Notes: generated by a model from the letters alone, not told the origin. Shown: positions 17,298 through 52,643, counted from the whole stretch's first letter. The stretch: DNA of 59,247 bases, filler included, from 5 parts of 5 records of this genome joined end to end with filler, not necessarily neighbours in it; one strand, 5' to 3'. Made by a program: numbers and translations.

Positions 17298-17397
17298 NNN
17301 NNNNNNNNNNNNNNNNNNNNNNNNNNNNNNNNNNNNNNNNNTTAATTAATTAANNNNNNNNNNNNNNNNNNNNNNNNNNNNNNNNNNNNNNNNNNNN
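17298..17397. other. Artificial contig spacer
   Basis: 44 N + TTAATTAATTAA (stops in all six frames) + 44 N. Confidence 0.98.
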
Positions 17398-23496: not shown

Positions 23497-23596
23497 NNNN
23501 NNNNNNNNNNNNNNNNNNNNNNNNNNNNNNNNNNNNNNNNTTAATTAATTAANNNNNNNNNNNNNNNNNNNNNNNNNNNNNNNNNNNNNNNNNNNN
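23497..23596. other. Artificial contig spacer
   Basis: 44 N + TTAATTAATTAA + 44 N. Confidence 0.98.
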
Positions 23597-26608: not shown

Positions 26609-27290
26609 ATTATTGAGATAAGCTATACTCTACTTAATAAAACAGCAGGTTGCTGGATTCTACAAAGCATCTACTCTCCTATTCCTCTTAATTAAGATTA
26701 TTTTTTTGATATTGGATAAAATGAAGTACTCAGATTGAGTGCTTCATTCGAGATGTTTAGCTTCTCCCGACCCCTAACATCTTATTCTTGAATCTTTGCA
26801 CCAAGCAGATAATTCACTTAAAATTAAAGGTATCATGGAGGATTATTAACAATTTAATAATTACTGTGAGCCAGTTAATTATAATTTTATTCCTCTTATG
26901 CCAGTTTAAAAACTCTTTATCAATAGATGTGACCACCGATAACATATAGCCCTAAGAATTCGTTCTTTTATCTAAACGTAATATTCTTCTTCAGACCCGA
27001 AAAAAGCAAGAAGGCTTAATACTTGAAATAAAAAAAGAGGTTAATCGCATTTTTATTTTGTTTTTTAAGCTTAAGAAAAAAAATATTAGAAGAAATAAAA
27101 GATGAAAAATAATAAAACGAAATATTAAAAATAATTTTATATTTGCATCGAAACTATATGAAACTTTTTCGTGTAATTTCAAATTAGATACAAACCAACA
27201 GCGAATAATACTTGATGTATTGCAATTTTACCCAACAATAGGTCTTTTCGCTGGGGGAAATATTAGTCTATAATTTGTTTATTGAAATCC

Positions 27291-29272
27291 ATGACAGATA
27301 AATTCGATAAAAACAAGTCCATCTTTGGACTTGAAAATTTATTTAAAATTGCAAACGTAAGCAATCCTGCAATATCCCCAGACGGCAGCAATATTGCCTG
27401 TGTGGTATCACGTGTAAATGAGTCTGAAAACAACAGGGAAAGCAATATCGTATTAATATCGGCAGAGGATAAAAAAACTCAGGTTATAGCTCGGGGAGAA
27501 ACTCCTGTCTGGTCGCCCGATGGATTATACATTGCCTTTGAGGGCGAAACAGAAGGTAAATCTGGAATATGTATCTACGATGTAACAAATGGCAACGAAC
27601 GGTTTTTGGTAGAGACCTTTCAATCTTCCTATTTTATTAACCACTTGGAAGATAAAAATTATTGTTGGTCGCCGGATGGCAGGCATATTGCTTATGTGAG
27701 TACTGCCCCATTTAAACCATTGGAAAATGAAGATGTGAGAATTTTCGACAGGCTTCTGTATAAAAGTAAGGGCGGAAGAGGCCGTTCTTATTTTGCCGAC
27801 GACCATTTGTTTCACATCTGGATAGTTCCGACAAATGGTGGTGAACCCAAACTTATTACTGATAGTGATTATAATGAACATTCTATATCCTGGTCTCCCA
27901 ATGGAAAAGAGATTTCTTTTGTAAGTAACCGTTCTGAATTTCTGGACAACAACCAGCTTTGTGATTTGTGGAAAATAAATTTAGAAACGAAAAAGACAAC
28001 CAGGCTTACTTGTAACTTTGGAACTGTCTTTCAGCCCAAATGGTCTCCCAATGGAGAAACCATTGCTTTTCTCGGGACAACAAGTGTAATTAACACAAAT
28101 GATAGCATGTCGGATGACACCCATCTATACCTGATCCCGGAATCAGAAGGTGTACCGCAATGTTTAACAAAAAAGTTGGATCGTCGCGTTGAAAATATTG
28201 CCTGGCACCCGAATAGTAATTCAATATATTTTACGGCAGGAGACAAAGGTACAACTCCGTTATGTAAGGTGTCCGTAGAATCAGGAGAGATCGAAGCAAT
28301 TATACATGGCAAATCACATATAATGGAGTATTCGCTGGATAGTGAAGGCCGGAACATTGCATACCTCGAAACAGATATCACGCACCCCCCAGAGATTTTT
28401 CTTACTCAAGGAGGTCAACAAAAAGTTATTGGGATCACCAATGAGAATAAAGAGTTGTTAGATTCATGCCAGTTTCAGGATGCTGAAGAATTTTGGGTTA
28501 AAAGTTTTGATGACACAATGGTTCAGGGATGGATTATTCGCCCGGCCGTATTTAATCAGGCAAAAACTTATCCATTAATTCTTGTTATTCACGGTGGCCC
28601 ACACAACATGTTTGGATATGAGTTTGAAGAGCGTTGTCAGGTTTTAGCTGCGCATGGGTATGGTGTTCTGTTTATTAATCCTCGAGGAAGTCACGGATAT
28701 GGGCAGTTATTCTCAAACGGAAACCTACTGAACTGGGGAGGTGGCGATTATAAAGATTTGATGGCTGGTGTTGACCATGTCGTTGACAAATATGAATGGA
28801 TTGACAAAGAACGTTTAGGAGTTACAGGACAAAGCTATGGTGGGTACATGGCAAACTGGATTATTACGCAAACGAACCGCTTCAAGGCTGCTGTTGTTGA
28901 TGGAGGAATCAGCAACCTGATTAGTTTTGCAGGCATTTCTATTTATCATTCACTTATCGAATCTGAGTTTAACGGGAGTACTTACGATAACTTTGAACTT
29001 CTTTGGCAGTGGTCCCCCTTAAAAATGTGAAAAATGTTACTACCCCCACCTTATTTCTTCATGGAGAGATTGATAATGAAGTGCCACTTCAGCAGGCAGA
29101 AGAAATGTATGTAGCATTAAAAAAACTTGGGGTTAAATCATCATTTGTGCAGTATGTTGGAGAGGGGCACGGGTGGCGTCCCGATCTTAAACCTAAAAAC
29201 AGGTATGATTTGTATTATCGAATGATTTCTTGGTTCGATGAACATTTGAGTAGTGATATATTAAGCATCTAA
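27291..29272 (+). CDS. S9C prolyl oligopeptidase/acylaminoacyl peptidase family (1-nt frameshift at 29021-29025)
   Basis: WSPDG/WSPNG propeller repeats, IHGGPH and nucleophile GQSYGG. Asp (HGEIDNEVP) and His (EGHG) lie in ORF 29003-29272. One added A restores SPLKNVKNVTTP. TATATTTG promoter element at 27138-27145. Confidence 0.9.
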
Positions 29273-29309: not shown

Positions 29310-29788
29310 ATGGAAACATCAAAAAATTGGATCAAATTCGTGGTAATCCATGTCGCTTTTTTAGGAGCCTGGGGTTCATTGGTCGAAATTCCCGAAAAGT
29401 TTGGTTTCCCAGCCACACTTGGTTATGTAGTCTGGGCTTTAACGATGATCCCTGCTGCAATTCTGGCCTTAAAAATAAACAAATGGAAAATTGATTATAA
29501 CAAGACTTCGATTATTTATGGGAGTCTTGTTGGTATCCTTGGTGCAGCTGGTCAACTGGCACTTTTTTTCATATTACGCATAGCTCCTGCTTACCTGGTT
29601 TTTCCTTTACTTTCTCTCACACCCGTTGTTACCATCCTGCTAGCAGTGATATTTTTAAAAGAGAATACCGGAAAAATCGGCTGGGTTGGTATTGGTGTTG
29701 CCCTTATTGCAATTTTACTTCTTTCTTATCAGGCACCAGATAATGAGGATGTCCGCGGCTATTGGTGGATGGTTTTAACTGCCATCCC
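29310..29788 (+). CDS. EamA/DMT family transporter (partial)
   Basis: Multiple TM helices, GAAGQLALF, APAYLVFPLLSLTPVVTILLAVIFLKE. Truncated by the contig end. Confidence 0.85.
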
Positions 29789-29888
29789 NNNNNNNNNNNN
29801 NNNNNNNNNNNNNNNNNNNNNNNNNNNNNNNNTTAATTAATTAANNNNNNNNNNNNNNNNNNNNNNNNNNNNNNNNNNNNNNNNNNNN
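29789..29888. other. Artificial contig spacer
   Basis: 44 N + TTAATTAATTAA + 44 N. Confidence 0.98.
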
Positions 29889-30689
29889 TTTTGCCCGTTC
29901 ATACTCACTTTTCGCGCGTTGATAGGCCATTCGCCGCTCTGTCCAGGAAAAATCACTGCTTAACGATGGACTCAAAACAGCTAATACATCTCCTTTTTTT
30001 ACAGAGCTGCCAGGTACAACCATATTTTGATTATGCTGCACATTTAAAAGACCTTCCACAGGTGATACGATTTCAGCATAACCGTGCTGATGTGGAATAA
30101 CTTCGCCAACTGCTGTGATGGATGATTTGATTGTCCTGTACTGCACCGGAGATGTTTGAAACTCCGTTTTCCATTGCTGCTCTTTGAGGAAACTTATGCC
30201 CTCTTCCTCATGATGCTCTTCAGCATGTTCATTCTCCTGAACATCCTCCTCCGAGTTGTAGGCAATGATATGGCCGATATCAAAACTGTCATTAATAACA
30301 TCATTCTCATATTTTAAAAAAAATAAATAGGTCCCATTCTGAGGTAGCTGGACTGTCGGGGTAAAAATGCCTTCTCGCAATAACTCGTCAGTTCTAACAT
30401 CTACTGTTTTCCCGTTCTCATGACGAAAATGAAGCGACACAGCACCAGTGGTTACCGGTTTAAAATCAGCCAAAGTTGTGAGGTGAATGATAAATTTCGT
30501 TTTTTCTGAGACCACTGGCGTTTGGAATTCCATAAACAACTCCATCGTATCCGTCCACTGCGTAACAGAGATAGTGTGTTGATCCTCAGAACGTTCATGA
30601 TGACTATTTTCATTTAGAGCCTCATTATTCCCACATCCTGAGAATATCATTGATATAGAAATAAATAAAAAACAGGCAAGCTTTTTCAT
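29889..30689 (-). CDS. RND efflux periplasmic adaptor (CzcB/CusB-like lipoprotein), partial
   Basis: Lipobox FSGC, His/acidic tracts (HHERSEDQH, EHAEEHHEE), TQWTDTMELFMEF, ISFLKEQQWK, lipoyl-like EIVSPVEG...GSSVKKGDVLA. Confidence 0.82.
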
Positions 30690-30772
30690 CGTTTTATCCT
30701 TTAAATCTGGTTTCATAAAATGTAATTTTCCTGATATAGAATAATGTTAAATACTAAAATGATTACCCGGAA

Positions 30773-32011
30773 TTATAGTGACAAAAGATCCTGAGCCACC
30801 AGCACCTCCAGTTGAAAAATGGTACTGTAATAATGTGAAAGTTGTTCATAATAAGATTCGATACTCTCAGCATATATCTGTATCCCATCCAGGAGATCAC
30901 CCAATGTGATCCAGCCTTCACGGTAGGAAAAAGTCAGATTCTCCACAACCTTATCCACATTTTTTAACTGTTGTTCGTTTTCCTCAAAAAAGCGGGTATA
31001 TTCTTCTATTGTCTGTAATTTAGCATCTAAAAGCCCAAGGACTCGTTTCTTATACATATCCGATTCAGCATTTAAGAGAGCTAATTCAATTTGCTCTTTT
31101 TGAATTTGCGAACCATTTTTGTTTAATAATGGTAGCGGCAAGGACAACCCAAGAACAAACCCTTTATAATCTGTATTGACCTGCTTATAGCCACCAAACA
31201 CACGCATGTCGGGCAACAGGTTTGCCCGCGCCATCTGAATTCGTTTTTTCATCGCTTTTTGCAGATATTCCCTGCGTTTATACTCAATGGATGTAGTAAA
31301 CATCTCAATATAATCGTCAACCTTTCCGGCATTAAAAGGTTTAAATTCAAACGGAGTCATCAATTGAATGCCCTGCCCTTCTTCTATACCAAGGCTTGTC
31401 TTCCATTCACTTAATAGCTCACGTCTATCCTGCCCAATTTTCAAAATATGGCTCTTGAGATTAAACATTGACATTTGAATGAGTTGTTGTTCCAAACCGG
31501 AAATGGCACCCTCGGCTAATCGATCCCGGGCAATGCCAGAGGCTGTCTCGACAACCTGTTCGAAATTTATCAATCGTTGAGTTTGGCTTTCATATAATTT
31601 TATTCTCACATATCCTGATTTGATCGTTGCCAGGACATGTAAAAAATCGGATTCCTTTTTCAGCTTTGCGGCTTTTAGTTGTTCCTTCCAGCTCGACCGG
31701 TGTAAAGCTTTTACCCAGGGCATTGAAAAAGTTTTTTCCAGAGTCACAGCATATTCTTTCTCTTCGTCCCAGTCACTTTTTACTTTTTCATGCTCAAACT
31801 CTATTTCAGGATTTGACCACTGTAAATCAATTTTACTTTCAACTTTGGTCAAATCATATTGACCATTAAACAATTTTATTTCCGGACTTTGTTGTCGAAC
31901 AAAATCCCGCAATTTCTCAAATGGAATTGTTACTATATCTGTTTGAGTAAAGCCAGGACATATTAAGACACTTAATACCATTATTACCAACATGTTGATT
32001 CTTAATATCAT
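30773..32011 (-). CDS. TolC/CzcC-family outer membrane efflux protein
   Basis: Signal peptide, WSNPEIEFE, GAISGLE, LLPDMRVFGG, GLSLPLPLLNKN and YREGWITLGDLLD. Adjacent to the adaptor. Confidence 0.85.
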   Translation of the reverse strand: MILRINMLVIMVLSVLICPGFTQTDIVTIPFEKLRDFVRQQSPEIKLFNGQYDLTKVESKIDLQWSNPEIEFEHEKVKSDWDEEKEYAVTLEKTFSMPWVKALHRSSWKEQLKAAKLKKESDFLHVLATIKSGYVRIKLYESQTQRLINFEQVVETASGIARDRLAEGAISGLEQQLIQMSMFNLKSHILKIGQDRRELLSEWKTSLGIEEGQGIQLMTPFEFKPFNAGKVDDYIEMFTTSIEYKRREYLQKAMKKRIQMARANLLPDMRVFGGYKQVNTDYKGFVLGLSLPLPLLNKNGSQIQKEQIELALLNAESDMYKKRVLGLLDAKLQTIEEYTRFFEENEQQLKNVDKVVENLTFSYREGWITLGDLLDGIQIYAESIESYYEQLSHYYSTIFQLEVLVAQDLLSL

Positions 32012-32182
32012 TTATGATCTCCATGAATTCATTTATATCCGAAAGTACCACTCCAGAATAATCCTGATAAATTTTTCTCCGGTTTTTTCTTTTACAACAA
32101 GATATACGCTGTCTGTATCGATTGTATAATATCGGGATAAGGTTATAACTTTTATTCAAATATTGTAATAGTAGGGGGATTA

Positions 32183-32581
32183 TCAGGAAAGATGAGGAGG
32201 ACCTCTGGTAACAATCTTGTAATTAACAAATTGCTGCCTGAAAAGGGGTGAGTCATTTTCGATGAGTAAAAATTTTTGTAATAAAGGATTTAAATCCTTA
32301 AAGACAAGAACAAAAGAATGTGTTATAAAAACGGTATTTATTTGTTTATTTTGAGGAGCATGATTCCAATCGCCAACAAAATGCTCGTGTTCATGATCAT
32401 GATCTTCTACACCCCGATGCGAGAACGGGCACGTATGAGTCGGATGAAATCGAATTTCAAGCCACGCATCCTTTTCCGCCTGATGTACATGTACATGAGC
32501 GTAAGGATACACTTGCCCGATAAGTACATAGAGTAAAAAAAGACTATATACGATTATCTTATTTTGAAAAATCTTTTTCAT
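32183..32581 (-). CDS. His-rich small protein with C-terminal RGPP motif (candidate regulatory leader)
   Basis: N-terminal hydrophobic segment, HVHVH, HPTHTC, DHDHEHEH and terminal RGPPHLS*. Sits immediately upstream of tolC. Confidence 0.7.
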   Translation of the reverse strand: MKKIFQNKIIVYSLFLLYVLIGQVYPYAHVHVHQAEKDAWLEIRFHPTHTCPFSHRGVEDHDHEHEHFVGDWNHAPQNKQINTVFITHSFVLVFKDLNPLLQKFLLIENDSPLFRQQFVNYKIVTRGPPHLS

Positions 32582-32677: not shown

Positions 32678-35600
32678 TTACCGTTCTTTTTCTATCTCAA
32701 TTCCACATAAAAGCGGTTTACTGCCAGATACTGCGGCAGAAGTCTTACTTTTTACAACTAATTTATCACTAATTTGAATACGCTGAAAAGTTTTTGTAAT
32801 GTGTCTGACAGGCCCACCTGCTTCTTTGGCAATATCAAAATCACGTAAAACTATTTTATCCTGCAGGAATACATCAAAGACACGCTCACCTGTACTCTTA
32901 TTTCCCAACTCGGCAAAGTGTAAGCGAACCGTATAATAAGCATTTTCCATTGTTTTTTCAGACAAGGTAATTTCTATTTCCATATCCGCAGAAATGCCGG
33001 ACGCTGCGACCCAGTTTTCCTCTCCTGGATGAAGAGATAATGAATGAAGACGATAATATTCCGGTTTCTCAGCTTTAAAATGGACCGGAATGTCCGGGGA
33101 TTTGCCGCCAATGCTTGGATAATCAAGCCACAATATACCCTTTTTGTCGATACGGTCTCCAGGGGCATTCAAATTGAGACCGATTCGGCTTATCGCCTCT
33201 CCATCCCATTCATAGTCATTATTCGTCCAATATTCCAATTCCGGCATGTGAACAAAAGCAAGGGATGTCTGATTCTGATATGAGCACTGGCAGGTACGTG
33301 TATATTCCGGAGCATTTAAAACGCCATTGGCCACAACGAGATTAGATGTACAGCCTGATTTGAATCCACCAAAATTTCCTGTCCCTCCATCATTGGCCAA
33401 ATCATAGAATCCAGCTGCTGCAGATCGAAAGGACAAAAGATGTTCACTGGCTATATTATAATTACATCCATAAGTACGTGTATAAGTCCAGGGAATCTCT
33501 TTTTCTGTGCTTGGATCTTGCCTGTAAATCCGCTCACCTGATAACAGATGAATGGCTAATTTATCCGTGATAATGTGATCATGATGCAGGATGGGAGGAT
33601 TATTATAAGAGAGTTTTTGATCCCATAAAATGGTGCCATCAGATGCCTTATAAGCGATCATTCGATCACCCTTTTCACCGGAAAGCATATCCCGGGAAGG
33701 ACGGGTGGCCTGAAGAAGAACATCAAATTCATTGGAATAACTTAACCAGCTGCCAAAAATATCTGTATTTTTCTCCCACAATATCTTGCCTGTTTCCGCA
33801 TCAAATGCCAGCAGGCGGTAATCATCAGGAACGGTCAAACCGCGTCGCTGCATTTTGTTTTCAATAAAAGCTGGGAGTTTATCGAGACAATAAATCTTTC
33901 CATTAGCAGCTGTAATCGCATTATGGATAAAACCGTATCGAGCCGGAAACTGCCACTTTACCGTGCCTGTAAACCGATCCATTACCACAAGCATCTTACT
34001 CGCTGTGATATCATAATTTTCATAGTCTCTCACCCTCCGCTGCTTTTTTGGGGACAAGCTGGCAAGATTTTTCCGTCTACTTGGATCAGGTGGTAATAGA
34101 CTGGAATATCGAACAAACTCTGAACCGCCAATAAGGTAATCATCAGACACTCCAATATAGCCCCATTCATGTTTATTGCTATCACTGAGAATGGGGATTT
34201 GTATGGTATTAACCGGCTGTCCGTTCGTTATGTCAAGTACCAGGCACGTATTTCCCTGAACAATATAAACATAATCCTGAGTTGCGACGTAATTTGTGCC
34301 ACGAGCATTCGCTCCAGGCATATGCTCCTGATTATATGTTGGGATCAGAGGCGTATTTTTATAAGTTTCATTATAAAAAATACCATAGGTATCCACACTA
34401 TCCAGAACTGTCTTCCATAATACACGTCCTGTGTAAACATCCCTGGAACTAATGCAATCCATGCCTTCAATAATCAATCGGCCGCCAACGACCTGCTCTG
34501 GTGGACCGTGGCCGTGCCGTGGTAACACATCCAGATTTGAATTGCCGCCAAACCAGAGTAGTCCCAGTGGCATTTTTACGAGTTGATCATCTGATTTAAT
34601 GGTATTGGCAATGTTGCCATATTGGTGATTCCAATCAGAGGCTCCGGGAAGAGGGCCATCACGTGAAACCATAACACTCTCATTAAAAGATTGAACGCTT
34701 GATGAAGCAAGATTTAACTCATCCAGCAAGGTAACAATCTTACTTTGATCCTTCTTTTCAATGGGGAGCCATAGTTTTCCACCATATGGGCGCATAGAAC
34801 GATAAAATTTTTGCAATGTTGGTGCCTCATAGTAGGACGTGCCTAAATTTTCATCACCAACAACCGTTAAAGATGCAATATACGGGGGAAGCGGTATCGC
34901 TGAAGATGTATCGGCGAATAGGCTAATCCGTTCACCATACAGCCCAAGGCTATCAAACCACGGCCGTAGCTTTTCTATTTTTTTTACATCCGGGTCTATT
35001 GCAATAATATGCAGCTTTGAAAAAAGCGCTAATGCTGCAAGCATTTCACCATTTCCCACACCATGGTAAAAAGCATAGCCCTCATTAATGCCCGTTTTTT
35101 GGAGAAGAGATGTGGCTTTATCAGCTATTTTTTTTGAAGGTTTCCAGGATGTTGCCTGTGTTTTCAGATATTTCGTCTCTTTATTTTTTTTGCCAAATGC
35201 TAAAATTCGCCCATCTAATGTAACAGCAAAAAGTTTATTATCCGCCGCTATTAAACGTTCAAATTTCCCCGGAATATCTTTTGTCCAAACATTTTTTGGT
35301 GTATCTCCATTACCGTTTAATTGTATTGCGGTAATGTGATTTTCACGCGCCGCATACAAACGGGAACCGGCCTGAATTAAATCCCCTGAGGCATTTATAT
35401 CCAGCTCCCATGACATATCATCCGGAAATTTTGCGTCCCTGGCAGTTATGGATTCACCTGAAAAATAAAAAACATCCTGGGCAAGCACAGGATACGTGCC
35501 AATTTTATGAATGAGCCGGTTTCCTTTTTTCATATCATACAAGCTGGTGACACGATCTCTAAAATGATTGAAAAAGAATTGATCGTTGGCACACACAAAG

Positions 35601-36430
35601 GCTCCACCATTTTTATTATATTCGGCGAAATGATAATATAAAAAATCACCGGTTTTAAGATCAAAACAGGCTGGAACAGAACGGCCACCCGGGACAAGCA
35701 AACGATCGCCACCAATTACGAGTGCGCCTTGTGGAGCGATACTGGCAAAAGCGGGCGAATTGTGAGGTTGTTTGATGTATTGAGCACCTGTTTTTTCATT
35801 TCTCCAGACGATCTCTCCTGTTTCGGCATCCAAAGCATAAATAAAAATCCCCATAAATGGCCAAATGCTGGCTCCAAAATACACAACATCATCTTTAACA
35901 ACGACACCACCACGAGCAGGCCATGAGGAAATCAGCCGTTTATTACCCAATATCTTCCGATCCGCAGGAGCACCACGAAATTTCCATAACAACTCACCAG
36001 TACGTGCTTTCACACAATAAAGATAACCATCATCACTGGTAAAATAAATTTTCCCTTTCGAGCCTGCTAATGGCAATCGAACAGGCCCATCCACATAAAA
36101 GCTCCATTTTTCTTCACCGGTTTCTGTATCCAGAGCGACAACTTTATCGCAGTCATTAAATCCGATGTACATATAGTGGCCCAGTACTATGGGTTCGAAA
36201 ACACGGTCATATGGCATCATATCCTGATTTAAAGGATCATCCCACACATCATCGCGAGGGCTGTACTCTCTAGTCCACAGCAACTCCATATCCTCAGGTA
36301 GCTCAAGCGGGCTGCAGGCTGTCCGGCCCGCATCATATCGCCACATGGGCCAATCCTGGGCGAACCCCGTCGGATTGACGCTAAAAAAGTATAAAAAACA
36401 TATAAATATAATTTTTCCACATCTATTCAT
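32678..36430 (-). CDS. Large exported PQQ-like beta-propeller protein with internal SAM-methyltransferase-like and C-terminal malectin-like domains
   Basis: Signal peptide then DWPMWRYDAGRT. Blades ALDTETGEEKW, CVKARTGELLW and ALDAETGEIVW. MTase-like GYAFYHGVGNG...IIAIDPD...MRPYGG. Second propeller from DWNHQYGN. Malectin-like YTVRLHFAE...RVFDVFLQ...FDIAKEAGG. Confidence 0.8.
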   Translation of the reverse strand: MNRCGKIIFICFLYFFSVNPTGFAQDWPMWRYDAGRTACSPLELPEDMELLWTREYSPRDDVWDDPLNQDMMPYDRVFEPIVLGHYMYIGFNDCDKVVALDTETGEEKWSFYVDGPVRLPLAGSKGKIYFTSDDGYLYCVKARTGELLWKFRGAPADRKILGNKRLISSWPARGGVVVKDDVVYFGASIWPFMGIFIYALDAETGEIVWRNEKTGAQYIKQPHNSPAFASIAPQGALVIGGDRLLVPGGRSVPACFDLKTGDFLYYHFAEYNKNGGAFVCANDQFFFNHFRDRVTSLYDMKKGNRLIHKIGTYPVLAQDVFYFSGESITARDAKFPDDMSWELDINASGDLIQAGSRLYAARENHITAIQLNGNGDTPKNVWTKDIPGKFERLIAADNKLFAVTLDGRILAFGKKNKETKYLKTQATSWKPSKKIADKATSLLQKTGINEGYAFYHGVGNGEMLAALALFSKLHIIAIDPDVKKIEKLRPWFDSLGLYGERISLFADTSSAIPLPPYIASLTVVGDENLGTSYYEAPTLQKFYRSMRPYGGKLWLPIEKKDQSKIVTLLDELNLASSSVQSFNESVMVSRDGPLPGASDWNHQYGNIANTIKSDDQLVKMPLGLLWFGGNSNLDVLPRHGHGPPEQVVGGRLIIEGMDCISSRDVYTGRVLWKTVLDSVDTYGIFYNETYKNTPLIPTYNQEHMPGANARGTNYVATQDYVYIVQGNTCLVLDITNGQPVNTIQIPILSDSNKHEWGYIGVSDDYLIGGSEFVRYSSLLPPDPSRRKNLASLSPKKQRRVRDYENYDITASKMLVVMDRFTGTVKWQFPARYGFIHNAITAANGKIYCLDKLPAFIENKMQRRGLTVPDDYRLLAFDAETGKILWEKNTDIFGSWLSYSNEFDVLLQATRPSRDMLSGEKGDRMIAYKASDGTILWDQKLSYNNPPILHHDHIITDKLAIHLLSGERIYRQDPSTEKEIPWTYTRTYGCNYNIASEHLLSFRSAAAGFYDLANDGGTGNFGGFKSGCTSNLVVANGVLNAPEYTRTCQCSYQNQTSLAFVHMPELEYWTNNDYEWDGEAISRIGLNLNAPGDRIDKKGILWLDYPSIGGKSPDIPVHFKAEKPEYYRLHSLSLHPGEENWVAASGISADMEIEITLSEKTMENAYYTVRLHFAELGNKSTGERVFDVFLQDKIVLRDFDIAKEAGGPVRHITKTFQRIQISDKLVVKSKTSAAVSGSKPLLCGIEIEKER

Positions 36431-37097
36431 GCAATGTACCTTTTATTTCAAATACGCCATTTTCCAGATAAAGTATTCTATCAGCCCTCTTTGCAGCATC
36501 CTGATCGTGTGTCACTAACAGGACAGCTCCTTTTGCCTGGGTATATTCTTCAAGACAATCCAATACAATGTTCGAATTCGCTTGATCCAGATTGCCGGTA
36601 ATTTCATCGGCGAATAATATTTTGGGATTAAAAAGGAGCGCTCTGGCCAGGGCTGTTCGTTGCTTTTCTCCCGCGCTCAATTCGGCAGGAGTATGATACA
36701 ATCTCTTCTTCAATCCAAAATTCTCCAGGAGTTCCTGAGCCCGATCTTTTAATCCAGCATCAGGTGCTGCCAAACCGGGCATGAGAACATTCTCTAACAC
36801 CGTCAAATATGGAATCAAATGATACTGTTGAAAAACAAAACCTATATTCTTTGATCGAAATAGTGCCCGCTCATCAGGACTTTTTTCATACACATCCTGA
36901 CTTTCAAAAAGAATCTCGCCCTCATCCGGTCTTAAAAGTCCACCGGCAGACAGAAGCAGTGTGGTTTTTCCACTTCCACTGGCACCCACGATAGCCACAA
37001 ATTCACCCGGTTGTACAGAACAACTAACACCATCCAGGGCTTTTACAATATTATTCTGTTTTGAGTAGTATTTGCTTACGTTATTCAATTTTAACAT
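36423..37097 (-). CDS. ABC transporter ATP-binding protein (LolD/MacB-like)
   Basis: GASGSGKT, IGFVFQQYHL, LSAGEKQR, ADEITGNLD and VTHD. Confidence 0.92.
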   Translation of the reverse strand: MLKLNNVSKYYSKQNNIVKALDGVSCSVQPGEFVAIVGASGSGKTTLLLSAGGLLRPDEGEILFESQDVYEKSPDERALFRSKNIGFVFQQYHLIPYLTVLENVLMPGLAAPDAGLKDRAQELLENFGLKKRLYHTPAELSAGEKQRTALARALLFNPKILFADEITGNLDQANSNIVLDCLEEYTQAKGAVLLVTHDQDAAKRADRILYLENGVFEIKGTLHE

Positions 37098-37103
37098 GGT
37101 CTC

Positions 37104-38368
37104 TTATTCCTCCCTCAAAACAGCTGCCGGATCCTGTTGCGATGCCAGAAGAGCAGGAATCCAGCTGGCGATTACTGCGAGAAGTGGAGCCAACACTATG
37201 GCCAAAACAAAAACTCTATAATCAAATATGGACTGCCTCCATGTAAAGTGCTCCCACATTGAACCCAGCAATAAACCACTACCGAATCCCAGGAGTGCAC
37301 CAATAAGGCCCATAAAAACAGCTTTTAATAAAAAAAGCAACAGTATCTGTTTTGAACGAACACCAACAGCTCGCAATATTCCTATTTCACTCTTGCGATC
37401 ACGCACATTTGCAAAAAAGAGCAAGGCTATCCAGATAGCACAAGCCATCAGGATAAGTGGAACCAGAATGGCAGCAAACTTTTCCTGTTCCTGACGCAGC
37501 TGTGCCCGATTTTGCTTTTCAGCCTCGATAGCATCCTGAGCCTCCTGTGCCGCACGATCACGCGCTTCAGCACGGGTGAGCACTTTTCCTCCCTGTTCAA
37601 TCACATGAGTACCTGGTAATATAGCACCAACTTCCGACCGTATTTTTGAAATATCATTACCAGCGCAATGACATTTTAGGGCAAGAATCGCGTTGATCTT
37701 GTCTTTCTTATTAAGCATTGTTTGAGCTTCTTCCAGATCCACCCAGATTGTAATATCATCCTTATTACCCCGTTCTTCGTTTGTTTTCGAAATCGTAAAC
37801 GTCCGTCCCATCAAAAGAACACTGTCACCAACCTTTAAATTTAAACTGGAATGAAGCTCATAGCCAATAACCATACTACCTTTTGGCACAGCCACGAGAA
37901 TAGGTTCCTTTGGGTTTTTGTGAAGAAAGGGAACCTCACCCGAGTACCGATAAGAATGGCTGTTCTCTGTTTTTCCGGCCATCGAATTCTTTGCTGTAAA
38001 CTCGGTAGCAAATGGCGAATCGTCATGAGAGGAGCTGCCGCAAGCTCTTTCACATATTTTTCAGGCATGTATTTCGAGGCAAAATCATCTGCATACAAAT
38101 CACCCAGGTTTTGATCTTTGGGTAAGATCAGAAGATTAAAACCCAACTTTTTCATAATCTTGCGATAATCATCCTGAAGAGCGGCCACTCGCTCAATTGT
38201 TTCCGCTTCTTTTTTGGCAATAATCTCCAGAGTATGAATATCATGCACTCGCAGCATCGTTAAAGAGCCTACCAGGGCCATTACCGCCAGTACAACGGAT
38301 ATCAATCCAAGACCAAAATTAAGCTTGCGACGATTCATTTCCTTGAATACAAGCTGCCAAATGTTCAT
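37104..38368 (-). CDS. FtsX/MacB-type ABC permease (1-nt frameshift at 37939-37941)
   Basis: ATG 38368 overlaps the upstream stop (ATGA). Has an N-terminal TM, a periplasmic domain with LKCHCAG, and NVRDRKSEIGILRAVG...QDPAAVLREE. One added G restores IGTRGEVPF. Confidence 0.85.
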
Positions 38369-39561
38369 ACTCTTTTTTTCCCTTTTCGTGTAAACCATAT
38401 CGAAGCAAAAACGATTGTAAATAATCCCAAACCTATGACAAAAAAAAGATTCCGTTCCAAAAGTGGCGACGAACTTTTATCAAAATTGTTTTTTTCAGTG
38501 ATCTGTGTTTCTGACAACAATGTATCTAAAACATTATATTTCAAAGATGGCTGCTGACCTGAATCAGGAAGAACAATATCATCAGCCGCTTCCTTTGTAT
38601 CCGTTTCTGGTAAAAATCCTGACAAACCAGTCAGTGGTGGCATTTCTTCCTGTGGAATCTGCGATATATTGATATATTTAGACCACTCTGCTGAAAACAA
38701 CAAATCATTACCTGGATTCTGAGCCTTGATCTCGCAGGAACACCACCCATTTATCGACCGACAAGCATTGTCTATCATATTTTCATTAATACCGGCACCA
38801 ATCAGGGAATATAGTGATCGTCCTCGTCCGAAAATGGGAAAAGCCATGGGGTCAGCATATTCACTCAAATCCGCCTCAGTGGCTAGCAACATATTAACAA
38901 AAATAGCCTCTCTGGGATCATTCCGCGACACTCGCACCATCGATATTTTTATATCCACATCCTGAAATTCATCAGTATCAACAGGATTACCATCTATATC
39001 AAAACCGGTCTCTGGCACTTTAAGGTCTCTTGAAAGTGTCACCAGATAATTTTCTAACAAACGGGCCGCTTTATCATTTTCCAGCGAATCAGCTCCCTCA
39101 AGAAACAACCAGACAGCCATCTCTCCATGTAATAATCGCTCAGCTATTAAAGATCGACTCGGAGAGTTTAATAAATATTCCACATTTTGTTTTGATAAAG
39201 GACCAGCCCAGATAACATAGTCCTCTCCTTTTGTATCAGGCGGTTTTAAAATCATCAAAGGTAATCGAGATGTTGATTGATCCATCTCTAATAAAACCTT
39301 CTCATTTCCATCTATTTTTATGGTATGGACATATATATTGGCAGTTGAATCCTGAGAAAAAGAAACTCTTTTAAGTTGATTTATAGCATCTTTTTGTTCA
39401 GAGTCCAATTCACCAGTATAATAAATCTGTACCTGATAAGGATCTGCACTCCATCGTTCCAAAGCATAACGAAACACCGGAACATTACAGGCAAAGACTA
39501 TATTGCCAAAGAATAAAAAGTAACAGATAATTAAAACTGATAATATCTGCCCGATATTCAT
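38365..39561 (-). CDS. Conserved hypothetical exported protein with C-terminal membrane anchor
   Basis: Signal peptide ending VFA|CNVPVFRYALERW, FPIFGRGR, GWCSCEIKAQNPGNDLL, and a C-terminal TM followed by a basic tail (WFTRKGKKRV). Start ATG 39561 or TTG 39582. Confidence 0.75.
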   Translation of the reverse strand: MNIGQILSVLIICYFLFFGNIVFACNVPVFRYALERWSADPYQVQIYYTGELDSEQKDAINQLKRVSFSQDSTANIYVHTIKIDGNEKVLLEMDQSTSRLPLMILKPPDTKGEDYVIWAGPLSKQNVEYLLNSPSRSLIAERLLHGEMAVWLFLEGADSLENDKAARLLENYLVTLSRDLKVPETGFDIDGNPVDTDEFQDVDIKISMVRVSRNDPREAIFVNMLLATEADLSEYADPMAFPIFGRGRSLYSLIGAGINENMIDNACRSINGWCSCEIKAQNPGNDLLFSAEWSKYINISQIPQEEMPPLTGLSGFLPETDTKEAADDIVLPDSGQQPSLKYNVLDTLLSETQITEKNNFDKSSSPLLERNLFFVIGLGLFTIVFASIWFTRKGKKRV

Positions 39562-39897
39562 TTTTTTGTTACTACTTTTCAAAAGGTCTTGCTACCTGTT
39601 TATTAAATTATCAATGGAATCCTCGAACATGAAAAGCTGAACGACAATAAATATTTAATATTATTTATTTTACGACTCACAAACAAAACATGACAAACAA
39701 ACAAAAAAGCACGTGCCGTATTTTTAAGTGCCCATTTTATAGAATTAGAATATTATGCGTTTAATACACATTTCAATAAAGTTTAAATAACACTCTTTTT
39801 TTCAATTTACTTAAGACTTGGATTGATTTATCTCATTTAACGTCATAAACAATTGTGTCAAAAAAATAATGAATAGAGAATCACATAAATCCATTTC

Positions 39898-42138
39898 TTA
39901 AAAAGTTTGGGATAATCCAAATGTGATCCTTCTGCCGTAATCAGGATATCCTACTACAGTTGAATATTTTTCATCTGTCACGTTTTTCATTTCAAAATAA
40001 ATTCTCGTTGGATACATTCCCTGAAAAGTGCGACCGAAAACAAAATCTACTGTAAAAAAATCGCCAAGAGGCTGAGGTATTGCAGGATTTGTTTTAGAAC
40101 TTGCAACAAAACGAATACTTTCAAAGGAAGAAACATATTTACATAATGCATTAAAATCATAACCGGACCATTTTTTATATACGCCCGCATTTAGGATAAA
40201 GCTGGGAATCTCTTCATTTCGTACCTTGCCACTTCCCTGATCCGCTCTGGAGTACATCAAAGTCGAATTTAAAAACAATTCCATATTGCCTAAAATATTA
40301 AATGTTCGAAACTCTATCTCCAGGCCATATTGATCCTGATCACGATTCATATACAATTCCATTATTCGATCATTACTGTCATATGTCTGACCACTTAAAA
40401 CAATGGCATCTTTTTGTTGGGTAAAGAAACCGACAACTGATGCCTGACCAAATCCTTCCCATCTACCACAAAGTCCTAAATCTAATTTAACCTGATTTTC
40501 ATTTTCAGGTTCCGCAAATGTCGTATCAAGTGTACCGCTTGTCGGTTTTATGGATCCACTGGCCAGATTGGAATGCAACGAGTAATTTTGCGTTAAATAG
40601 TAGGCCAGACCAAAACTTCCGGTAAATGTTGATGGTTGCCACTCATCAGTGATGGGTGCGACCTTTGAAAATCCTTTTGCACTTCCATCAATGCCAAAAG
40701 CGCCATATTCGTTCAGATGAGTTTTTTCCCAGCGCACTCCTGCATCCAAACTCAACTTGCCAAAATGGTGTTCATCCACGATCACACCGGAAAAAATTTC
40801 TGTATCATTGGGTCTGCCATAATAAAAACGTTTACCATTGGGAGCAACCCAACGATTATATAAAGCCCCGATACACAAAAAATTATCATTGAACAACGAG
40901 ATGGACTCTATCAAATTGATATTCCACTCATGATCCGCTTCCTTATTCCGAACAATTTCATGAGTCTCAGGATCTTCAATTTCAAAAACCGGTTTTCGAT
41001 CTGCGTATGAAAAACGAAACTCTGTTGAGGTTTTTGAGCTAGTCTGATAAAATCCTTTAAAATTAAAAATGGTTGTGAAAACAGGATCATATTGCTGTAA
41101 AAATGTCTGAAATTTAAGTGCTGCAGGTGGTTCAGCCTGTGCCAGTTCTCTTTGACCATTCAAGTGATAAAGACTGGCTTTTACAGACAATTTTTCGGTC
41201 GGTTTGTAGGATAAATTTCCAAAAAAATTGGTCATACTCTCTGATGCATGGATACCGTTTGGTCCATCAGAATGCTGTATACCCAATCCAGTGCTATATG
41301 ACAAGGCACCAATTTTGGAACCATGAGATAAATGAGCACGATACGTATCAAAGGAGCCGTATTCGATCTCACTCAATGTCTCTGACTTTTCATACTCTCT
41401 GGGCACAATATCAATAACACCAGCCATTCCGGTCACGCCTGTCAATAATGCCGCGCTCGATCTTATAACCTTGATACTTTGAATATCAGCGGCTGAGAAA
41501 AAATAAGTTGTTTCGTGAAATTCTTTCTGCCAAATTCCATCTATAGCATAGGTAGGATAGGGGTAACGTTGTCCCCTAACGGAATAAAATTGTTTAACCT
41601 TCCTGCCTCGCGTTTCAATTAATGCTCCCGGTACATATTTCATTGCGTCGATAAGAGTTTTGGCTCCCAATTTTTTTATTTCAACTCTAGGTATAATACT
41701 GGTTGACAGATCTAATCCGGGAGATTCCAATGCGGGATCAGTGACAATATTTCTCTCATGTTTATCAATAACATAAACAGATTGCATTTTCAAAACAGTA
41801 GGTAATAATTCCACATTTATCGTTAAAACAGAGTCGGGAACGATTTTTATCGATTTTTCAGAATCATTGTATCCCATCATAGATATTTCTAATTTGTAAT
41901 CTCCAGGCAACAGGCCCATTATCTGGAATTGACCACCTGTATCACTTGAGGCACCATGAGTCGTATTTTTAACGACAATATTGGCTCCTGTCAAACATTT
42001 TTGACTTCCCTCTTCCTTTACAAGTCCCTTGACTCCTTGAACAGCATTTGAGGTCACGGAAAATATAAATAAAAATAGAAATAATAATCCAAAAACAGAT
42101 GTCTTACATTTACCTCGTGTAGAAAGCAACGGATACAC
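39898..42138 (-). CDS. TonB-dependent receptor with N-terminal carboxypeptidase-regulatory-like domain
   Basis: GANIVVKNTTHGASSDTGGQF, plug LIDAMKYVPG...SVRG...IDG...IKVIRSSAALLTG...AGVIDI, and C-terminal NVTDEKY...GRRITFGLSQTF. GGAGGA RBS. Confidence 0.9.
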   Translation of the reverse strand: MYPLLSTRGKCKTSVFGLLFLFLFIFSVTSNAVQGVKGLVKEEGSQKCLTGANIVVKNTTHGASSDTGGQFQIMGLLPGDYKLEISMMGYNDSEKSIKIVPDSVLTINVELLPTVLKMQSVYVIDKHERNIVTDPALESPGLDLSTSIIPRVEIKKLGAKTLIDAMKYVPGALIETRGRKVKQFYSVRGQRYPYPTYAIDGIWQKEFHETTYFFSAADIQSIKVIRSSAALLTGVTGMAGVIDIVPREYEKSETLSEIEYGSFDTYRAHLSHGSKIGALSYSTGLGIQHSDGPNGIHASESMTNFFGNLSYKPTEKLSVKASLYHLNGQRELAQAEPPAALKFQTFLQQYDPVFTTIFNFKGFYQTSSKTSTEFRFSYADRKPVFEIEDPETHEIVRNKEADHEWNINLIESISLFNDNFLCIGALYNRWVAPNGKRFYYGRPNDTEIFSGVIVDEHHFGKLSLDAGVRWEKTHLNEYGAFGIDGSAKGFSKVAPITDEWQPSTFTGSFGLAYYLTQNYSLHSNLASGSIKPTSGTLDTTFAEPENENQVKLDLGLCGRWEGFGQASVVGFFTQQKDAIVLSGQTYDSNDRIMELYMNRDQDQYGLEIEFRTFNILGNMELFLNSTLMYSRADQGSGKVRNEEIPSFILNAGVYKKWSGYDFNALCKYVSSFESIRFVASSKTNPAIPQPLGDFFTVDFVFGRTFQGMYPTRIYFEMKNVTDEKYSTVVGYPDYGRRITFGLSQTF

Positions 42139-43772: not shown

Positions 43773-45032
<1,260 letters not shown>

Positions 45033-52543: not shown

Positions 52544-52643
52544 NNNNNNNNNNNNNNNNNNNNNNNNNNNNNNNNNNNNNNNNNNNNTTAATTAATTAAN
52601 NNNNNNNNNNNNNNNNNNNNNNNNNNNNNNNNNNNNNNNNNNN
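52544..52643. other. Artificial contig spacer
   Basis: 44 N + TTAATTAATTAA + 44 N. Confidence 0.98.

Follow-up and report, generated by a model that had tools for sequence, protein, structure and literature searches.

A conserved, unnamed type VII ABC module with three invariant periplasmic cysteine sets: a candidate cysteine relay of the bacterial envelope

Few ABC (ATP-binding cassette) systems of type VII have a known job, the known ones being in cell division, the sorting of lipoproteins, efflux and the hydrolysis of lipids. In those portions of the published accounts that are drawn on here, the FtsEX-EnvC-amidase, LolCDE-LolA, MacAB-TolC and YbbAP-TesA systems share a four-helix FtsX permease, a large periplasmic domain between the first two transmembrane helices (TM1 and TM2) and a separate LolD/FtsE-like ATPase, and for FtsEX-EnvC-amidase and YbbAP-TesA the same portions establish that type VII ABCs work with dedicated periplasmic partners. 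The subject of this analysis is a locus on the minus strand of a DNA stretch of 59,247 nucleotides (the window, in which five parts of five records of one genome are joined end to end with filler), where five co-oriented genes encode a TonB-dependent receptor, a protein termed A405 or the hub, an FtsX permease, an ABC ATPase and a giant propeller protein (Table 1). As judged by comparison with relatives, the gene set is a conserved, old and widespread envelope module without a name, present in one copy in the window, and it is classed among the type VII ABCs that have a periplasmic partner of their own, here a putative one. The reading that accounts for it best, and which we put forward tentatively, is that a type VII ABC drives a relay of cysteines in the periplasm, on which a putative thiophilic cargo would travel. 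New from this analysis are the resolution of a frameshift in the permease gene, the association of the module with a ModA-like importer and the fusions of the hub to other components.

As in the described type VII systems, the partner gene is here translationally coupled to that of the permease. The module differs from them in that its FtsX periplasmic domain matches no solved one by sequence and bears an invariant CxC, in that its partner is a tail-anchored thioredoxin-fold protein instead of a coiled-coil/LytM protein, a LolA, a MacA adaptor or a lipase, and in that it adds a third part, the double propeller of the giant protein. The hub and permease genes meet in an ATGA overlap (38365-38368), a gap of 6 nucleotides (37098-37103) separates the permease from the ATPase, and the ATPase and giant-protein genes overlap by 8 nucleotides (36423-36430), all on the minus strand. 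The tight coupling of these four genes, for which a first-pass annotation of the window had given the same three junctions, was thus found again, and so were the exported, C-terminally anchored first protein with a mature N-terminal Cys and GWCSCEIK (N-terminus ACNVPVFRYALERW), the LolD-like ATPase, although its match to LolD stays below the cut-off, and the propeller protein of 1250 residues, in which YGCN, SGCTS and RTCQCSY were all located. As for the permease, which had been described as a MacB/FtsX protein with LKCHCAG, its type and its motif hold, whereas the gene is not a single open reading frame (ORF) but lies in two frames in this record, a break that the first-pass annotation had overlooked.

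Domain and family assignments were made with Pfam and NCBIfam profiles at their curated cut-offs, and membrane segments were assigned from hydropathy. TM1 (14-44) and half of the periplasmic domain, namely the first, make up the N-terminal part of the permease; the C-terminal part comprises the remaining periplasmic domain, the stalk and TM2-4, a topology in keeping with a large domain of the MacB periplasmic-core type between TM1 and TM2. In the PDB, the permease profile finds MacB (5gko, 3.4e-16) and then LolF, LolE and LolC, with an alignment that covers TM2-4 only; no solved domain in the PDB aligns with the periplasmic domain, which reaches 18.2 bits with MacB_PCD (cut-off 27) and which is, by these comparisons, private to this family. 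The best NCBIfam match of the ATPase is LolD (TIGR02211, 213.3 bits against a cut-off of 307.75), and the permease stays below every named cut-off, with 55.5 against 362.45 for TIGR02212 (lolCE), 28-38 against 439-540 for the LolE/LolC exception models, 40.6 against 966 for MacB and 15.7 against 290 for DevC. The case that the first-pass annotation had set against its own proposal, i.e. a match to a characterised lipoprotein-sorting or export system, was not encountered, as no LolD, LolC/E, MacB, DevA/C or FtsE/X cut-off is reached. On the strength of the profile matches, the FtsX-type permease and its cognate ATPase are assigned as a type VII (MacB/FtsX-class) ABC pair.

These matches bear directly on a possible exporter of the Lol, Mac or Dev kind, in which the ABC pair would extract or expel a lipoprotein, a peptide or a lipid, and in which the neighbouring genes would be substrates or bystanders. 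Such an exporter would fit the best NCBIfam matches of the ATPase (LolD) and the permease (LolC/E), the Cys with which the hub begins after its signal peptide, and the presence of an OEP-family gene downstream in the window. It is nevertheless quite improbable, because the curated cut-offs for LolD, lolCE, MacB and DevC are all missed, because no lipobox precedes Cys32 of the hub, which is C-terminally anchored as well, and because no adaptor (membrane fusion) protein or outer-membrane factor recurs among the neighbours in the 80 loci described below, the OEP gene of the window not being conserved beside the relatives.

The frame switch in the permease gene results from one base missing between 37940 and 37941, and the permeases of five relatives read through this site as one protein. 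A contig from run X1 (depth 35.9) contains 99% of the sampled words of 36400-39600 and is identical to the window over 37000-38500, the interval over which contigs were compared, save for one extra base behind 37940; as this contig may stem from the source sample, it is not independent evidence on the frame break. A contig from run X2 (19,988 bases, from another study) differs in 95 of about 1,495 letters, being about 94% alike, and carries an extra base at the same spot; either insertion restores a single permease frame, while X3 and X4, two further runs, span no more than short stretches that do not reach the frameshift site. A gene for an S9 prolyl-oligopeptidase 9 kb off (27282-29272, plus strand) is likewise split, by what looks like a second one-base frame break, into the overlapping ORFs 27282-29030 (Peptidase_S9 positions 2-135) and 29003-29272 (positions 134-211). 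In view of the extra base in X1 and X2, and of the S9 gene, the break is read as an error of the record or a rare variant, and the gene of the organism is probably whole. If the frameshift were real and the operon decaying, the module would be dead in this organism, as the two frames of the window would have it; this is very improbable, given that both contigs carry the extra base at the break, that the S9 gene is split in the way that indel errors of a record would produce, and that the remaining module genes have open frames and are conserved.

The hub begins with a signal peptide, after which Cys32 forms the mature N-terminus; a pair of thioredoxin-like folds comes next, then a conserved segment with FGRGR...CxC and a linker that varies, and the protein closes with a C-terminal helix and a basic tail, hydropathy giving a signal-like stretch at 7-37 and a C-terminal membrane helix at 374-399. 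It has no Pfam or NCBIfam match, and the same holds for what is recorded of its relatives, which number 2593 at E ≤ 0.001 in a 90% cluster database: among the 120 matches listed none carries a Pfam domain, and any name given is ‘hypothetical protein’. A HMMER pass over 1.84 billion representatives yielded 3691 clusters, 3228 of them at 1e-10, and an atlas search with the hub returned only unnamed ‘hypothetical protein’ clusters (0.96). Besides its three invariant Cys, a further one, C274, is present in 50 of the 81 sequences. The residues at positions -3 to -1 of Cys32 are most commonly IWA, SQA, ARA, LWA, AWA or AFA, position -2 being W, Q, R, K or F; residues such as IWA, SQA, ARA and LWA suit cleavage by signal peptidase I but make no lipobox, which implies that the mature hub should start with a free Cys. 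Cys32 was also considered as a lipoprotein Cys, which was rejected, as the preceding residues form no lipobox and the hub has its C-terminal anchor. Of 256 proteins, 229 show the N-terminal pattern with its Cys (no inspection was made of the remaining 27) and 245 have C-x-C-x-[IV]-K.

An AF2 model of the hub built from a 20-row alignment has a mean pLDDT of 61, with the core (46-252) at 70-95 and residues 25-45 and 253-374 poorly modelled, the low-confidence segments being the most conserved, Cys-bearing ones. Foldseek relates the core to double-thioredoxin proteins (Eps1p at 2.7e-4, archaeal PDO and the AhpF N-domain) and to single thioredoxins (probability 1.0, TMt 0.55-0.66), and VIA, an aligner that is independent of Foldseek, gives a Z of 8.5 and an rmsd of 2.7 over 82 residues, with nearly all of its top 50 rows being thioredoxins or thioredoxin-fold proteins. 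The ordered part of the model is accordingly described as two thioredoxin-like folds. The canonical CxxC/CxxS site at helix 1 is absent, as there is no Cys at residues 45-252 in the 20 aligned hub sequences, in which Cys occurs only at 32, 274, 281 and 283.

Sco/SenC, Cox11 (CFCF) and CCS (CXC tail) are membrane-tethered thioredoxin-fold metal chaperones or CxC copper carriers. The hub resembles them in combining a membrane anchor with a periplasm-facing thioredoxin-like fold and in a potential three-thiolate set, a Cys plus a CxC, placed in flexible segments; it differs in being anchored C-terminally, in having two thioredoxin-like folds, in lacking CxxxC plus His and in being coupled to an ABC motor, and it shows no sequence relation to these proteins, at which no search was aimed. 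A second likeness is to DsbB, VKOR and MauE, periplasmic proteins that generate or shuttle disulfides, which have Cys pairs in flexible loops and for which thioredoxin-fold partners are usual; the part of the MauE account that is used here places the CxC in a disordered periplasmic loop and describes it as an experimentally required redox site. The module differs from these proteins in lacking a quinone-binding membrane core, in carrying its Cys on an ABC permease, a tail-anchored protein and a propeller, and in having an ATPase attached.

The fold of the hub would also be compatible with a pure thiol-disulfide relay that involves no solute, in which the hub would be a tethered oxidoreductase similar to protein disulfide isomerase (PDI), whose flexible CxC would, together with Cys32, swap disulfides with the CxC motifs that FtsX and the propeller carry, and would thereby fold the propeller, isomerise it or switch it on and off. 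Its two thioredoxin-like folds resemble the a-b pairs of the PDI family and archaeal PDO, MauE offers a precedent (within the limits of the account just mentioned) for a redox-active CxC in a disordered loop, the CxC loops of the hub and the propeller are both modelled at low confidence, and the two proteins pair at about 1:1 and are fused in one protein, P0122 (see below). That no Cys of the hub occupies the canonical thioredoxin active-site position, and that no electron source or sink resembling DsbB, DsbD, VKOR or MauE is found among the conserved neighbours, argue against such a relay, which moreover leaves the ModA-like importer and the TonB receptor unexplained. It also counts against it that the disulfide relays known to us need no ATPase. 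On balance, a relay of disulfides alone is possible, though doubtful.

In the giant protein, which is exported by the Sec route, a PQQ-like propeller (~25-420) is followed by a methyltransferase-like domain (~440-600), an 8-blade propeller (~600-1100) and a malectin domain (~1143-1246), and it is the second propeller that carries the Cys cluster. The model of residues 585-1140 (29 rows; pLDDT 78.5, pTM 0.83) is an 8-blade PQQ-like propeller with a CxC loop at pLDDT <50, for which tetrathionate hydrolase (1.2e-15, TMt 0.60) heads the Foldseek matches, in a near tie with BamB (TMt 0.69) and together with quinoprotein dehydrogenases, each at ~12% identity. Whether the leading match hints at sulfur chemistry was weighed, but tetrathionate hydrolase was rejected as specific evidence for it, as BamB and the PQQ enzymes tie with it. 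A PDB sequence search with the giant protein gives generic propeller repeats only, and the protein lies far below the family cut-offs for PQQ dehydrogenase (TIGR03075, 47.7 against 480) and BamB (TIGR03300, 52.8 against 285). Tetrathionate hydrolase, BamB and the quinoprotein alcohol dehydrogenases, i.e. 8-blade PQQ-like propellers, thus share the fold of both propellers of the giant protein, but lack its C...C...CxC cluster, its pseudo-methyltransferase insert and its malectin domain. The insert is so called because only the first Gly of GxGxG is kept across the 29 homologs, the window having GVGNG; its match to Methyltransf_25 stays at E 0.02 and 16 bits (cut-off 27). An ortholog of the giant protein occurs about once per genome in all five genomes checked, together with 0-2 distant paralogs. 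In the two closest loci, which are KSB1-like, the module lies amid genes for GH123, GH20, GH92, melibiase-like and calcineurin-like phosphoesterase proteins (L001, 228-7591 and 17171-19552; L002, 1082-3430 and 16948-19350), a glycoside hydrolase setting that may relate to the malectin domain or may be due to chance.

The spread of the module was assessed on contigs from one genome per species, among which at least 568 of at least 601 pattern matches encode a hub relative; the best 80 loci were kept, with labels of KSB1, Planctomycetota, Verrucomicrobiota, Acidobacteriota, Bacteroidota, Kiritimatiellia and Glassbacteria (at least seven phyla). Sixty-seven loci have at least 3.2 kb of sequence downstream of the hub, and tblastn with the window proteins finds FtsX after the hub in 58 of these and the ATPase in 50. 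Of the 41 loci with room on both sides, 28 have a giant-protein homolog no more than 10 kb from the hub, placed downstream on the same strand (15 loci), upstream and divergent (7), upstream on the same strand (5) or convergent (1). In L023 and L039 the giant protein directly follows the hub, without the ABC pair. Unsupervised clustering of 929 ORFs ranks the components in the same order, with the hub in 69 loci, the permease in 55, the ATPase in 47 and the giant protein in 39. The first-pass annotation had proposed the conservation of the Cys motifs and the co-occurrence of the genes as checks: the motifs are invariant (81/81 for the hub, 65/65 for the permease and 29/29 for the giant protein) though the relatives share just 25-45% identity, which goes beyond chance, and the genes are found together across phyla. 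Its suggestion that homologs might have selenocysteine (UGA) at these motifs was not borne out, as there is no stop codon at the Cys columns in the 81, 65 and 29 sequences; all of them read Cys there, so that no selenocysteine variant was seen. A full-text search of one collection of open-access papers found no description of this gene set.

After the core genes, the next commonest neighbour is an N-terminally anchored protein of ~546 residues with two ModA-like units in tandem, found in 15 of the 80 loci; a permease, seen in 10 loci, and an ATPase come after it. All 15 loci have Planctomycetota or Verrucomicrobiota (PVC) labels save L006 (uncultured bacterium) and L071 (labelled Akkermansia), in the latter of which the tandem protein comes directly after the hub, without FtsX. 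As in the ModABC molybdate/tungstate importers, the linked binding protein, permease and ATPase of the PVC relatives match the modA (104 bits, cut-off 62.5), Mo_ABC_porter and WtpC models; they differ from ModABC in that the binding protein is a membrane-anchored tandem, the second unit of which has invariant Cys (GCG and ACD). Its match to ModA in the PDB is weak (8e-7), and the Cys of the second unit presumably sit where ModA has anion ligands of the Ser/Ala type.

The association was followed at the genome level in 301 evenly sampled Planctomycetota genomes, many of which are incomplete. The hub is common in this phylum, being present in 44 of them, and the full-length tandem protein occurs in 32 (51 genomes matched at 1e-40, the others through single ModA-like units), the two coinciding in such a way that the tandem protein occurs in 27 of the 44 genomes with a hub and in 5 of the 257 without one (odds ratio 80, Fisher p 4e-22, uncorrected for shared ancestry or incompleteness). 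In several of the 27 genomes the two genes are adjacent. Fusions join the hub to either component: in P0121 the hub is followed by two membrane helices and then the tandem binding protein, and in P0122 the giant protein continues into a hub from which both C32 and the CxC are missing. A third protein, P0123 (744 residues), is hub-like without C32 and one Cys of the CxC, and continues past a membrane helix into a cytoplasmic ParA/MinD/NBP35-type ATPase (AAA_31, 167 bits). The hub is the linking part of the module: it adjoins the permease in most genomes, pairs with the propeller at about 1:1 and is fused to the propeller or to the tandem binding protein.

The module could also be a mechanical switch resembling FtsEX-EnvC, with the ABC pair only reshaping the hub, the hub activating or positioning the propeller (as an enzyme or as a glycan-binding scaffold) and the Cys being structural, in intramolecular disulfides or a zinc site. 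The FtsEX-EnvC-amidase and YbbAP-TesA systems, as far as the accounts cited at the outset describe them, are precedents for this; the FtsX periplasmic domain is unlike any solved one, in line with a partner that is private to it, binding roles are suggested by the malectin domain and the BamB-like propellers, and fusion variants without the hub Cys occur. A purely mechanical switch is, however, unlikely, as it leaves the importer link unexplained and as the hub, with C274 in just 50 of 81 sequences, has three invariant Cys, an odd number for disulfides. A lone CxC, such as that of FtsX, also makes a poor structural disulfide.

The TonB receptor gene lies 315 nucleotides upstream of the hub gene. 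Its orthologs (37-53% identity) adjoin the module in L001, L002, L003, L024, L073 and L079, and the receptor appears as a recurring extra part in the KSB1, Bacteroidota and Bryobacterales lineages, in whose genomes searched (see below) no tandem ModA-like protein was found. In three of the receptors (L003, 6931-9489; L073, 1428-4085; L079, 7122-9854) the signal peptide is followed by an S-adenosylmethionine-dependent methyltransferase domain with an intact DLGGGPG (GxGxG) loop, which replaces the N-domain (CarboxypepD_reg in the window); as this domain is exported, the methyltransferase fold would sit in the periplasm.

In the cysteine relay favoured here, the binding and hydrolysis of ATP would move the FtsX periplasmic domains by mechanotransmission, as in other type VII systems, and this motion would cause a cargo bound to thiols to be handed over between FtsX, the hub and the propeller by way of their flexible Cys loops. 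As cargo we envisage a thiophilic solute, which could be a soft metal or else an oxyanion species that reacts with thiols, and which in the lineage of the window may enter via the TonB receptor and which in the Planctomycetota and Verrucomicrobiota relatives may be passed to, or taken from, the ModA-like importer. The models of the hub and the propeller are ordered except for parts of low confidence that are probably flexible, and it is there that their CxC segments lie. A thiophilic solute is preferred because it alone accounts for both the TonB receptor and the Cys-lined ModA-like importer. The first-pass annotation had proposed a thiol relay that loads a metal or cofactor onto the propeller or matures it: thiol chemistry remains reasonable in view of the thioredoxin fold of the hub and the CxC of MauE, as described in the part of the account used here, whereas loading or maturation of the propeller is a conjecture as to its purpose, the links to the importer and the TonB receptor making solute trafficking at least as likely.

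Several observations weigh against this relay and keep its standing tentative. The permease gene is frameshifted in this record, no propeller lies within 10 kb of the hub in 13 of the 41 roomy loci, the receptor ortholog is adjacent in only 6 of the 80, and of the receptor's Cys, His and Met residues M628 alone is invariant. The association of the hub with the importer is uncorrected for shared ancestry and is drawn from many incomplete genomes. The tandem ModA-like protein has no tblastn match in the window, and a search for it in G003, G002 and G005, the KSB1, Bacteroidota and Bryobacterales genomes behind L001, L030 and L053, did not find it either, so that the link to a solute rests on other phyla. 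Finally, the loss of hub Cys in P0122 and P0123 implies that the hub fold can persist without them.

Downstream of the module, three ORFs on the minus strand (29841-32581) resemble part of a metal efflux set, namely a His-rich ORF of 132 residues (HVHVH and HDHEHEH), an OEP-family outer-membrane factor and a lipoprotein-like His-rich ORF of 291 residues (29841-30716; HHERSEDQH and EHAEEHHEEE), which runs into a masked run of N; they are not conserved beside the module in the relatives. Of the flanks given in the first-pass annotation, the same-strand TonB receptor is present, and a metal efflux operon is plausible from the His-rich ORFs and the OEP protein, but no more than that. The window contains four pairs of N runs of 44 bases, with 12 bases between the members of a pair (17298-17397, 23497-23596, 29789-29888 and 52544-52643), the third of which interrupts an EamA-like ORF (29310-29840, plus strand) as well as the ORF of 291 residues. 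Three genes upstream of the TonB receptor, on the same strand, lies a gene for S-adenosylhomocysteine hydrolase (43773-45032, minus strand), which is probably housekeeping. Rfam at its gathering threshold finds nothing in the window or in L001, L002, L003 and L024, and a promoter and terminator scan of the AT-rich window DNA was uninformative.

Table 1. Components of the module and their cysteine motifs, in window coordinates
Feature	Coordinates	Strand	Basis
TonB-dependent receptor, 746 residues: CarboxypepD_reg-like N-domain, plug, barrel	39898..42138	-	Pfam PF13715, PF07715, PF00593
Hub (A405), 405 residues; TTG start 39582, alternative ATG 39561	38365..39582	-	Relatives, AF2 model and fold searches, hydropathy
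Hub Cys32, first residue past the predicted signal-peptidase I site	39487..39489	-	Invariant in 81/81 sequences
Hub Cys281-Ser-Cys283 (GWCSCEIK)	38734..38742	-	Both Cys invariant in 81/81; pLDDT <50 in the model
FtsX/MacB-type permease, split in the record: N part 38368-37841, C part 37982-37104	37104..38368	-	PF02687, 66.1 bits (cut-off 25.5)
Permease periplasmic Cys-His-Cys (LKCHCAG)	37665..37673	-	Both Cys invariant in 65/65
ABC ATPase, 224 residues; Walker A GASGSGKT, signature LSAGEKQ, Walker B ILFADE, H-loop intact	36423..37097	-	PF00005, 115 bits
Giant exported protein, 1250 residues, with signal peptide	32678..36430	-	PF13360 (PQQ_2), PF11721 (Malectin)
Second-propeller Cys cluster C989, C1027, C1047-x-C1049	33284..33466	-	Each of the four invariant in 29/29, among them paralog-like proteins of 25-33% identity

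The hub has thousands of relatives and no family name, and the combination of three invariant periplasmic Cys sets with an ATPase, and in part of the relatives with a molybdate-type importer, provides a concrete and testable hypothesis on what these proteins do. The existence of cultured carriers, such as Puteibacter caeruleilacunae, Thalassoglobus neptunius and Gimesia, makes bench work possible. The module could perform a new envelope chemistry, be it the trafficking of metals or oxyanions or an ATP-gated exchange of disulfides. In a bolder and unlikely version, it would be a new machine for the acquisition of trace elements or thio-anions, in which the outer-membrane receptor would let in a thiophilic species, the propeller would process it, the ABC motor would force its transfer over three CxC stations to the hub, and in PVC bacteria the hub would feed the Cys-lined importer; if this were true, it would be the first ABC mechanotransmitter that powers the covalent or coordinate transfer of a cargo in the periplasm.

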